Shown here piece by piece: positions 3,180 to 3,311 of a DNA stretch of 64,000 nucleotides. The position numbers were made by a program, and so were the translations under genes. How positions within the stretch are numbered: position 1 is the first letter of the stretch; every line of letters starts with the position of its first letter. The stretch comes from Escherichia coli phage vB_EcoM_Shy, in the sequence record MT833282.1; one strand, written 5' to 3'. Under the pieces are notes generated by a model that was not told the DNA's origin, did not search any database, and saw only the letters and a program-made list of their open reading frames with translations.

Positions 3180-3311
3180 CAGAAGACCGTTTACAGCAAA
3201 ACTTAAACAATCTATTTCTCCGGTAAAGAAAAGGCGAAGGTTCGATTCCTTCACTCGGCAGATGTCGAGTTGGTGTAATGGTAGCACTTAAGATGATAAA
3301 CAATGGTCTGG
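3180..3311 (+). repeat. tRNA-array interspersed element E4 carrying a tRNA-like core
   Basis: cagaagaccgtttacagcaa ... caatggtctgg; direct repeat acttaa...aacaat on both sides of the core. Confidence 0.5.
3236..3286 (+). ncRNA. tRNA-like core with permuted arm order (T arm, then acceptor hairpin, then D-like arm)
   Basis: gaagg-ttcgatt-ccttc T arm followed by actcggc-agat-gtcgagt (7-bp acceptor-like helix closed by a 4-nt loop) and agttggtgtaatggtagcac D-like arm. Confidence 0.35.

Follow-up and report, generated by a model that had tools for sequence, protein, structure and literature searches.

The DNA analysed here, hereafter the window, is a 64,000-nucleotide (nt) stretch of Escherichia coli phage vB_EcoM_Shy (MT833282.1), a phage of the Felix O1-like type (Felixounavirus). 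We were concerned with E4, an element within its tRNA array that probably specifies a noncoding RNA of the Y RNA type, and with a gene for a Ro60-like protein located directly 5' of this array. ARAGORN called 26 tRNA genes, located on the + strand in 2281-7361. The Ro60-like gene has the same orientation and ends at 2115, ~1 kb ahead of the start of E4 at 3177. E4 and its shorter sisters E1, E2 and E3 are separated from the flanking tRNAs by 5-9 nt, and the gap that accommodates E3 and E4 extends over 450 nt from tRNA-Asp (2930-3007) to tRNA-Lys (3459-3534). The features referred to below are:

700-2115, + strand: gene of the Ro60-like protein, an open reading frame (ORF) of 471 amino acids with Pfam DUF2828 and DUF7788, orthologue of gp130 of phage Bas63
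2134-2162 and 2225-2254, + strand: two sigma-70-like promoter matches upstream of the first tRNA, from a consensus scan and consensus matches only
2448-2524, + strand: E1, candidate short Y-like RNA between tRNA-Glu and tRNA-Met, 40.6 bits with covariance model R1 (described below); GAC/GTC outer helix, AGA/G internal loop, AGACCAA/TTGGTCT helix, CAGCAA, small variable hairpin
2615-2678, + strand: E2, candidate short Y-like RNA between tRNA-Met and tRNA-Asn, TGC/GCA outer helix, R1 match 41.8 bits
3091-3169, + strand: E3, candidate short Y-like RNA, GAGC/GCTC outer helix
3177-3314, + strand: E4, candidate whole YrlA-like RNA of ~138 nt, from the minimum free energy (MFE) fold and orthologues in Felixounavirus, Mooglevirus and Suspvirus
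3177-3180 with 3311-3314, + strand: closing stem of E4, H1 with H1', TTAC/GTAA
3181-3183, + strand: internal loop AGA of E4, opposite unpaired G3310
3184-3191 with 3302-3309, + strand: H2 of E4, AGACCGTT with AATGGTCT
3194-3199, + strand: CAGCAA motif of E4, within the unpaired UAC-AGCAA that follows H2
3215-3231, + strand: V hairpin of E4, tttct-ccggtaa-agaaa, where a tRNA has its anticodon arm or YrlA its V arm
3236-3252, + strand: T arm gaagg-ttcgatt-ccttc, read from the sequence, near-invariant in close relatives (CATGG/CCATG, CAGGG/CCCTG and others in distant ones)
3253-3270, + strand: acceptor-like hairpin, closed, 7 base pairs (bp) including one G-U, loop agat
3253-3259, + strand: 3' acceptor-like strand actcggc
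3260-3263, + strand: acceptor loop agat
3264-3270, + strand: 5' acceptor-like strand gtcgagt
3271-3272, + strand: linker tg
3273-3287, + strand: D arm gtgt-aatggta-gcac, with the GG for elbow contact with the T loop

An earlier note on this DNA had drawn attention to the unusual succession of T arm, 3' acceptor strand, loop, 5' acceptor strand and D arm, and our reading of the sequence bears out this order. Three details required correction: the acceptor strands, described as perfectly complementary, include one G-U wobble (g3258-t3265), the D arm ends at 3287 and not at 3286, and the string given for it re-used an 'agt' that belongs to the acceptor strand. A script looking for a 5-bp stem with a TTCRANY loop, directly followed by a 6-7-bp hairpin and then by a 4-bp stem with a GG-containing loop, found this composite layout once on both strands of the window, at position 3236, compared to a mean of 0.01 matches in 200 first-order Markov resamples of the window, which makes a chance origin of the layout unlikely. 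ARAGORN, which the note had proposed as a check, left 3236-3287 uncalled and called its 26 ordinary tRNAs elsewhere. Rfam reported nothing at the site at gathering thresholds, and a permissive Rfam search returned a partial, sub-threshold tRNA match (23 bits) to the 3' part of the site, in which the upstream hairpin was taken for the anticodon arm.

E4 is predicted to fold into an outer stem enclosing four hairpins, namely the V hairpin, the T arm, the acceptor-like hairpin and the D arm. The energy of the MFE fold is unremarkable for its composition (z = -1.4), and the case for the structure therefore rests on comparison and not on energy. The outer stem is not unique to E4. A repeat search identified a four-member family with the motif CAGAAGACC-N5-CAGCAA, located at 2450, 2617, 3094 and 3180, each copy being followed 50-125 nt further 3' by GGTCTGG, which occurs on the + strand of the window only four times, always at the 3' end of one of the elements E1 to E4. 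Pairing of CAGAAGACC with GGTCTGG generates the same closing stem in all four, composed of the outer helix H1, an AGA/G internal loop, and H2, the latter consisting of AGACC plus two to three variable pairs. H1 differs in each copy and always pairs (GAC/GTC, TGC/GCA, GAGC/GCTC, TTAC/GTAA), and the inner pairs of H2 are G-C and U-A in E2 and E4, and A-U and A-U in E1 and E3. Both H1 and the inner pairs of H2 covary, between the paralogues as well as between relatives. E1 to E3 share this motif with E4, enclose only a small hairpin and have no tRNA-like part. In E4, the stem of the V hairpin is maintained in relatives and its loop is variable, with 5-7 nt. A further 5-bp helix, CTTAA (3202-3206) with TTAAG (3288-3292), was considered as an equivalent of the anticodon stem; it forms in the fold of the window sequence, its 5' strand is lost in Sf19 and SUSP2 and no convincing alignment was obtained in Moogle, and it was excluded from the structure model. 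At the Levitt pair 15:48 the window has A15 and C48, and the latter position is C, A or U in relatives without clear covariation.

The 471 bases around the site match 251 phage records, most of them with 95-99% identity. The earlier note had also suggested a comparison of orthologous loci: in all ten relatives fetched from Felixounavirus, Mooglevirus and Suspvirus, E1 to E4 are present with unchanged order and flanking tRNAs, and E4 is kept, with compensatory changes, across these three genera of the Ounavirinae and in more distant contigs while the flanking spacers diverge. T and D arms of E4 are almost invariant in the ten relatives, and both loops keep the elbow nucleotides. The acceptor hairpin occurs among the orthologues in three unrelated sequences, all of which pair:

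Window and Felix O1: ACTCGGC-agat-GTCGAGT
Sf19, SUSP2, KMM4, Sf13 and ESh22: ACACGT-tacg-GCGTGT
Moogle and HP1: ACCCTTC-gccaaaca-GAAGGGT

In a MAFFT alignment of nine orthologues, 97.6% of the alignment cells pair, compared to 41-50% when the partners are slid, and three of the seven acceptor pairs show double, that is compensatory, changes. A larger alignment of 43 sequences, which was fitted to the structure model and hence leans towards structure, the MAFFT alignment being the unbiased control, gave 95.8% pairing cells (62% shuffled, ~40% slid) and double changes in 30 of the 32 pairs, including all seven acceptor pairs. As far as aligned sequences can tell, these data show that all helices of E4 are maintained by compensatory changes. 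A further feature of the acceptor loop is an N-CCA at its start in some members, namely gCCAaaca in Moogle and HP1 (L005 and L009), aCCAactat in L012 (8947-9090), gCCAaaa in L014 (9235-9341) and aCCAaaatct in L051 (7938-8074), resembling a real tRNA 3' end plus a short spacer. Other members have the tetraloops agat, uacg, gaaa or guaa, and the loop of the window, agat, has no CCA. N-CCA loops and tetraloops may represent two processing classes.

To trace the element further, we used the covariance model R1, which was built from nine Felix-like E4 sequences only and scores E4 itself at 159 bits. Contigs with a 54-63% identical protein, including that of Yersinia phage P778, carry similar elements in the gaps of their tRNA arrays. 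Their motif is shifted in a pair-preserving manner (GAC-ATA-AGAATC...CAGCAA...GATTCT-G-GTC, and in a second form GC-ACA-GGACTGT...CAGCAA...ACAGTCC-A-GC), and in their E4-like members both the T stem (CATGG/CCATG) and the acceptor hairpin are different. R1 scored relatives at ~55% identity at 76-87 bits and recovered an element (39 bits, E 5e-7; motif GGACTCC-UA-CAGCAA...GGAGTCC-A) in mycobacteriophage Rumpelstiltskin, where it lies downstream of the Ro-like gene at a distance of 95 nt. In 74 environmental viral contigs, whose proteins are 39-47% identical, it produced 34 matches at E<0.05, all on the strand of the gene, a bias confounded in part by the shared orientation of the tRNA arrays and the gene. 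Six of these matches overlap tRNAs and correspond to tRNA-tRNA junctions, recalling the origin proposed for the YrlA class. The remaining 28 have no tRNA overlap, and every one contains, after an AAG-type motif, a C[ACT]GCAN match ~20 nt from its 5' end, this match reading CAGCAA in 17 cases; 16 of the 28 lie within 600 nt of the gene. At locus L039 a motif-bearing relative adjoins the gene and no tRNA was detected in the fetched stretch. Scans for a T arm yielded nothing clear at the Vibrio V09 locus and no match within +/-4 kb of the gene at the Campylobacter CJLB-10 locus. Judged by nucleotide comparison, the pairing of an E4-type RNA with a Ro60-like gene is shown to recur in distant phages.

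Some further candidates were noticed in these relatives. In Listeria phage LMSP-25 (L018), the region ~1027-1110, within a tRNA cluster 3 kb upstream of the DUF2828 gene, contains a T arm, an 8-bp hairpin with a UUCG loop and a D-like arm; this candidate was recognised by eye only and was not recovered by R1. The same phage encodes an RtcB-type 'tRNA-splicing ligase' (6808-8019) 1.3 kb downstream of the DUF2828 gene, an arrangement echoing rsr-yrlBA-rtcBA of Salmonella. Among the ~55%-identity relatives, L014 (9235-9341) and L012 (9484-9590) have a second kind of tRNA-like Y element with the same closing stem, CAGCAA or CUGCAA, a T arm, a UUUUCA..UGAAAA hairpin and a short D-like hairpin, and no V hairpin. 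In addition, L012 (~7600-7790), L013 (~9010-9230) and L014 (7607-7760) share a conserved tRNA-like sequence, GCGGGTGTAGTT...GGTTCGAGTCC...CCCGCAGC, with a large insertion, whose copy in L014 was called 'tRNA-???' by ARAGORN and which is followed 3' by a conserved block, TAAAGGTAGC...AACACGAGGCGAC...GCGCCTACTCTTAA.

The protein encoded by 700-2115 comprises an alpha-helical N-terminal part together with a von Willebrand factor A (vWA) domain with a DVSxSM motif, and its family is labelled 'RNA-binding protein' in PHROGs. An AlphaFold (AF2) model calculated from 33 homologues reached a mean predicted local distance difference test (pLDDT) score of 87.6. When this model was compared with the PDB by Foldseek, the top 11 matches were all Ro60/TROVE structures, aligned over the full length (E 2e-8 to 1e-6, template modelling (TM) score 0.41-0.67) and originating from Xenopus, human, Deinococcus and Thermus phage phiLo, and the next matches were isolated vWA domains. 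Residues D279, V280, S281, S283 and M284 of the DVSxSM motif (279-284), which we take to be a vWA motif of the MIDAS type (metal ion-dependent adhesion site), are invariant. In the predicted structure the protein thus forms a HEAT-like alpha-helical ring closed by a vWA domain with a MIDAS motif. Homologues were found in at least 709 phage records, covering Felix O1-like, KVP40-like, Campylobacter, Listeria, Staphylococcus, Bacillus and mycobacterial phages, those of mycobacteriophages being annotated as 'Ro-like RNA binding protein'. No NCBIfam match was obtained for the protein, and a literature search on DUF2828 returned nothing relevant. The orthologue in phage Bas63 (JohannRWettstein), bas63_0130, has the same position upstream of the tRNA array, and its product gp130 was reported to counter the ppl defence in the PhageMaP study, whose authors noted the Ro60 likeness and raised the possibility that Y RNAs are among the annotated tRNA genes (preprint 10.1101/2024.10.10.617714). 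Unlike the RNAs envisaged in that suggestion, the candidates E1 to E4 occupy the spaces between tRNAs and carry no tRNA annotation themselves; they are partly covered by minus-strand coding sequences (CDSs) that are probably spurious. Over the E4 region, Bas63 and the window share 99% identity. Directly 5' of the Ro60-like gene, a DUF5681 gene (247-618, + strand) keeps its position in contigs L011-L014 and may be a functional partner.

Several other explanations of E4 have to be weighed. The earlier note took the site for a circularly permuted tRNA gene, whose outer ends would be ligated or circularised and whose acceptor loop would be opened by RNase P and 3' processing to give a decoding tRNA. 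The four tRNA arms in permuted order, the 7-bp acceptor stem and the correct spacing fit this proposal, as do the N-CCA acceptor loops of some relatives (Moogle/HP1, L012, L051) and a V-hairpin loop of the form CU-NNN-AA in several relatives. However, that loop has 5 nt in Moogle and HP1, 6 nt in Felix O1, and reads CCGGUAA, without U33, in the window, and the would-be anticodon is GGU, AUA, UCU or GCU even among close relatives. The outer stem (H1 - AGA/G loop - H2) is not a bulge-helix-bulge and is common to E1-E3, the acceptor loop of the window lacks CCA, and a Ro60-like gene is nearby. Moreover, Trp is the sole amino acid absent from the 26 called tRNAs, and a likely tRNA-Trp(CCA) is located at 4240-4330 on the + strand (anticodon loop CUCCAAA, acceptor GTGGGAC/GTCCCAT, G73, CCA, an odd D region; uncalled by ARAGORN, with a weak tRNA-Sec-type Rfam match of 23 bits), so that E4 is unnecessary for a complete tRNA set. 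We therefore regard a decoding tRNA as very improbable; the note was right about the layout and mistaken about the kind of molecule. A group I intron or natural permuted intron-exon arrangement was also considered and dropped, as no Rfam intron match was found in 2000-8000 at E<=5. Several GenBank records annotate minus-strand proteins here (AYO145A_047, bas63_0137/0138, Felix O1 ORF94), and short ORFs do exist (72 amino acids, 3085-3303), the Bas63 record placing E3 and E4 under minus-strand hypothetical CDSs. Yet the limits given for the ORF vary from one near-identical phage to the next, Felix O1 lacks 1 nt of the ORF in comparison with the window, other relatives have non-triplet indels, and the substitutions track RNA pairing. 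Because of the inconsistent limits and the frameshifting indels, the short minus-strand CDSs over E3, E4 and the module downstream of them are probably spurious, and a coding function as explanation of the site is hardly credible. Permuted transfer-messenger RNA (tmRNA) genes have the order T arm, 3' acceptor strand, linker and 5' acceptor strand, which is also the order in E4. Nevertheless, E4 has a C-G pair at 3-70 instead of G3:U70, with the wobble at 2-71, no tag reading frame, no pseudoknots and no Rfam match to tmRNA or tmRNA_permuted at the site, and the chance that it is the tRNA-like domain of a two-piece tmRNA is negligible.

The fallback offered in the earlier note, a tRNA pseudogene remnant, would make E4 a functionless, decayed leftover of tandem tRNA genes whose acceptor complementarity was inherited from the duplication. 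The proposed origin of YrlA RNAs from dimeric tRNA transcripts (10.1101/312249) and the real tRNA-tRNA junctions picked up by R1 would agree with such a history. Maintenance of the element over three genera and distant contigs while the spacers diverge, retention of the elbow nucleotides, and an acceptor hairpin that was wholly replaced three times with pairing always retained argue strongly against decay; conservation together with pairing-preserving changes excludes a decaying pseudogene, and we give this explanation next to no credence. A functional structured RNA that acts independently of the Ro60-like protein deserves more attention. It could be a decoy for host tRNA-targeting nucleases or serve as 'punctuation' for processing by RNase P or RNase E, and the shared stem motif would then be the site of a nuclease or of another protein. 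The tRNA-like placement of E1-E4 in the array, with spacers of 5-9 nt, is consistent with this explanation. On the other hand, motif-bearing relatives adjoin the homologous gene in very different phages, often at less than 100 nt, the L039 locus has such a relative and no tRNA in its fetched stretch, and gene adjacency is the criterion that defines bacterial Y RNAs (PMC4201824). We consider independence from the Ro60-like protein unlikely, without finding it far-fetched.

Altogether, the data favour E4 as a ~138-nt noncoding RNA of the Y RNA type with a tRNA-mimicking middle as in bacterial YrlA, to which we assign a probability of about 0.7. Besides the lean of the larger alignment and the co-orientation of tRNA arrays with the gene mentioned above, the following points weigh against it. 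E4 lacks the Ro-binding motif GNCGAAN0-1G, its 5' end being UUACAGAAGACCGUUUACAGCAA with CAGAAG as the nearest match, and the Rfam YrlA model RF02553 did not match E4 at E<=10 in a search of the 151 nt from 3170 to 3320. The protein has Pfam matches only to DUF2828 and DUF7788 and none to TROVE, and a search of PDB sequences with its sequence profile found neither Ro60 nor any other solved structure; hence its similarity to Ro60 is at fold level only. Furthermore, gp130 alone, whether plasmid-borne or inserted in T7, rescues T7 from ppl (10.1101/2024.10.10.617714), implying that the counter-activity towards ppl does not need the phage's Y-like RNAs, which would suit an RNA independent of the protein, and binding of E1-E4 to the protein is so far only inferred. 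Since E4 has neither the motif nor a match to RF02553, since its T and D stems differ and since the link to Ro60 is restricted to the fold, we place E1-E4 in a divergent branch of the Y RNA/Ro60 system and not among the curated members of the YrlA family. E1-E4 may regulate the Ro60-like protein or serve targets other than ppl.

For such a Y RNA-type E4 the following mechanism can be envisaged. E1-E4 would be co-transcribed with the tRNAs, starting at the two promoter-like sites (2134 and 2225), as suggested by these sites, by the 5-9-nt spacers and by a consensus scan that gave the next strong + strand promoter match at 3708 and no + strand terminator-like site in between. The close spacing suggests that tRNA-processing enzymes could release the four RNAs. 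The closing stem, with its internal loop and CAGCAA, would be the binding site of the Ro60-like ring, and the tRNA-shaped module would be the effector end. This module might tether a host tRNA-binding enzyme, for instance an exoribonuclease, by analogy with the complexes of Ro60, Y RNA and polynucleotide phosphorylase (PNPase) (PMC4201824; PMC12135203). Alternatively, it might act as a decoy or gate regulating what the ring binds. As the acceptor-like stem has the full 7 bp, cleavage by RNase P in the acceptor loop is conceivable and would yield a two-piece molecule, as in the YrlA RNA of M. smegmatis; the N-CCA acceptor loops of some relatives make a processed, CCA-ended two-piece form possible in part of the family.

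The surroundings of E4 contain additional structured sequences. Directly 3' of E4 and 5' of tRNA-Lys(UUU), a ~145-nt structured module (3313-3458, + strand) is closed by a 22-nt inverted repeat (3313-3334/3433-3454) and includes an inner hairpin, CAGAC-cuuaagcaa-GUCUG, with covariation of its stem among relatives (CAGTC/GACTG, GTTC/GAAC, AGAGAC/GTCTCT); in L011, GCGA/TCGC is replaced by GCGG/CCGC. It was found in L011-L014, some Felixounavirus records match only up to ~3326, and it has no Rfam match. The presence or absence of the inverted repeat (3313-3454) is independent of E4, making it a separate module. Between tRNA-Asp and E3, two hairpins at 3036-3090 on the + strand (gagggcta..tagcccctc and cttaaaga..tctttaaag) show pair-preserving changes in contig L011 (GGAAGGACT..AGTCCCTCC; CCATTAAAG..CTTTAATGG) and could be a processing or attenuation signal. 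Ahead of tRNA-Arg(UCU), the region 3839-4027 (+ strand) gave a weak Rfam tmRNA match far below threshold (17 bits, E 6e-4, model positions 56-294) and a weak tmRNA_permuted match at 3855-3906.

Felix O1-like phages are classical typing and therapy phages, and their tRNA region has so far been annotated only as tRNAs and small hypothetical ORFs. Four candidate Y RNAs, among them a full mimic of a tRNA, can now be placed at exact coordinates beside a reported anti-defence factor, and our literature search found no paper identifying these RNAs. The role of a Ro60-Y RNA particle in phage infection and the binding partner of the YrlA-type tRNA-like module thereby become testable. Hundreds of phage genomes contain the DUF2828/DUF7788 family, and the data also suggest that this family is a branch of Ro60 with an RNA recognition motif of its own. 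A wider proposal, which we put forward tentatively and hold to be rather doubtful as a whole, is that E1-E4, together with the Ro60-like protein of the DUF2828 type, stand for an extensive class of phage ribonucleoproteins that has hitherto gone unrecognised, with the A/G internal loop plus CAGCAA as its own RNA signature. Its working end would be the tRNA-shaped Y RNA, embedded in the phage's tRNA array and processed along with it, which captures a host tRNA-binding enzyme or a defence nuclease directed at tRNAs, or acts as a decoy for either. Where the acceptor stem has 7 bp or the loop carries N-CCA, RNase P and the CCA-adding enzyme could turn this RNA into a tRNA mimic that consists of two pieces and is possibly chargeable.

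Several known systems resemble this locus. Circularly permuted tRNA genes occur in Cyanidioschyzon merolae, some other algae and one archaeon, and their transcripts pass through a circular intermediate and become decoding tRNAs with the help of the splicing endonuclease. E4 has in common with them that the 3' half lies 5' of the 5' half, that the acceptor ends are joined by a short loop, and that the outer ends form a stem where the anticodon stem would be; it differs in having no bulge-helix-bulge and no conserved anticodon loop, and in an outer stem with a protein-site-like motif that also occurs in RNAs without a tRNA-like part.

A close counterpart is YrlA (S. Typhimurium, M. smegmatis and other bacteria; RF02553). 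YrlA RNAs consist of a 5' stem strand with the Ro motif, YUAY, a V hairpin, a T arm, an acceptor-like stem-loop, a D arm and the 3' stem strand. Their genes lie on the same strand as, and no more than 4 kb from, the gene for Ro60, a protein that binds Y RNAs, and are usually accompanied by simpler Y RNAs; the YrlA of M. smegmatis, with a 7-bp acceptor stem, is cleaved by RNase P and receives CCA (PMC4201824). Further hallmarks of the class are binding by Ro60/Rsr in vivo and the presence of pseudouridine 55 and dihydrouridine, introduced by TruB and DusA. They have been described as resembling circularly permuted tRNAs (PMC4201824; 10.1101/312249), and the earlier note had thus rediscovered a hallmark of the YrlA class. 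The 2018 structure preprint gave the binding partner of the tRNA-like module as unknown (10.1101/312249). E4 agrees with YrlA in the order of all parts, including the dinucleotide linker, in a YUAY present as UUAC (3191-3194; UUAC or CUAC in relatives, including the mycobacteriophage), in the pairing of its ends into a long stem that replaces the anticodon stem, in the D-loop GG and T loop for the tRNA elbow, and, as regards M. smegmatis, in the 7-bp acceptor stem. It also lies within 4 kb of a Ro60-type gene, assigned at fold level only, on the same strand, and has simpler, YrlB-like companions in E1-E3. In contrast to YrlA, it has an AGA/G internal loop flanked by AG/CU pairs and an unpaired CAGCAA in place of the Ro motif, its stems are GAAGG/CCTTC and GUGU/GCAC where YrlA has the near-invariant GCGGG/CCCGC and GCUC/GAGC, its partner protein is of the DUF2828/DUF7788 type instead of Pfam TROVE, and its genes are embedded in a phage tRNA array. 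The mycobacteriophage relative of E4 is weakly matched by RF02553 (21 bits).

The earlier note had believed this layout to be without precedent in phages; YrlA-like RNAs were in fact reported from mycobacteriophages in 2014, and Ro60 with Y RNA-like partners was described for mycobacteriophages, for Caulobacter phage CcrColossus and also for Bacillus phage G (PMC4201824). Thermus phage phiLo likewise has Ro60, with Yrl1 and Yrl2 (PMC12135203). The present locus is similar to these phage systems in combining a protein with the fold of the Ro60 ring with adjacent small RNAs whose 5'-3' stem flanks an internal bulge, and in a proposed anti-defence use via host RNA enzymes. The phiLo protein is a recognisable Ro60 homologue, in contrast to the fold-level likeness seen here, and its Yrls carry a CGAA motif, with no tRNA-like domain described in the sections of PMC12135203 consulted. 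What further distinguishes the Felix O1-like arrangement from the phage Ro60 systems is that four candidate RNAs reside within a tRNA cluster, one of them being a full tRNA mimic.

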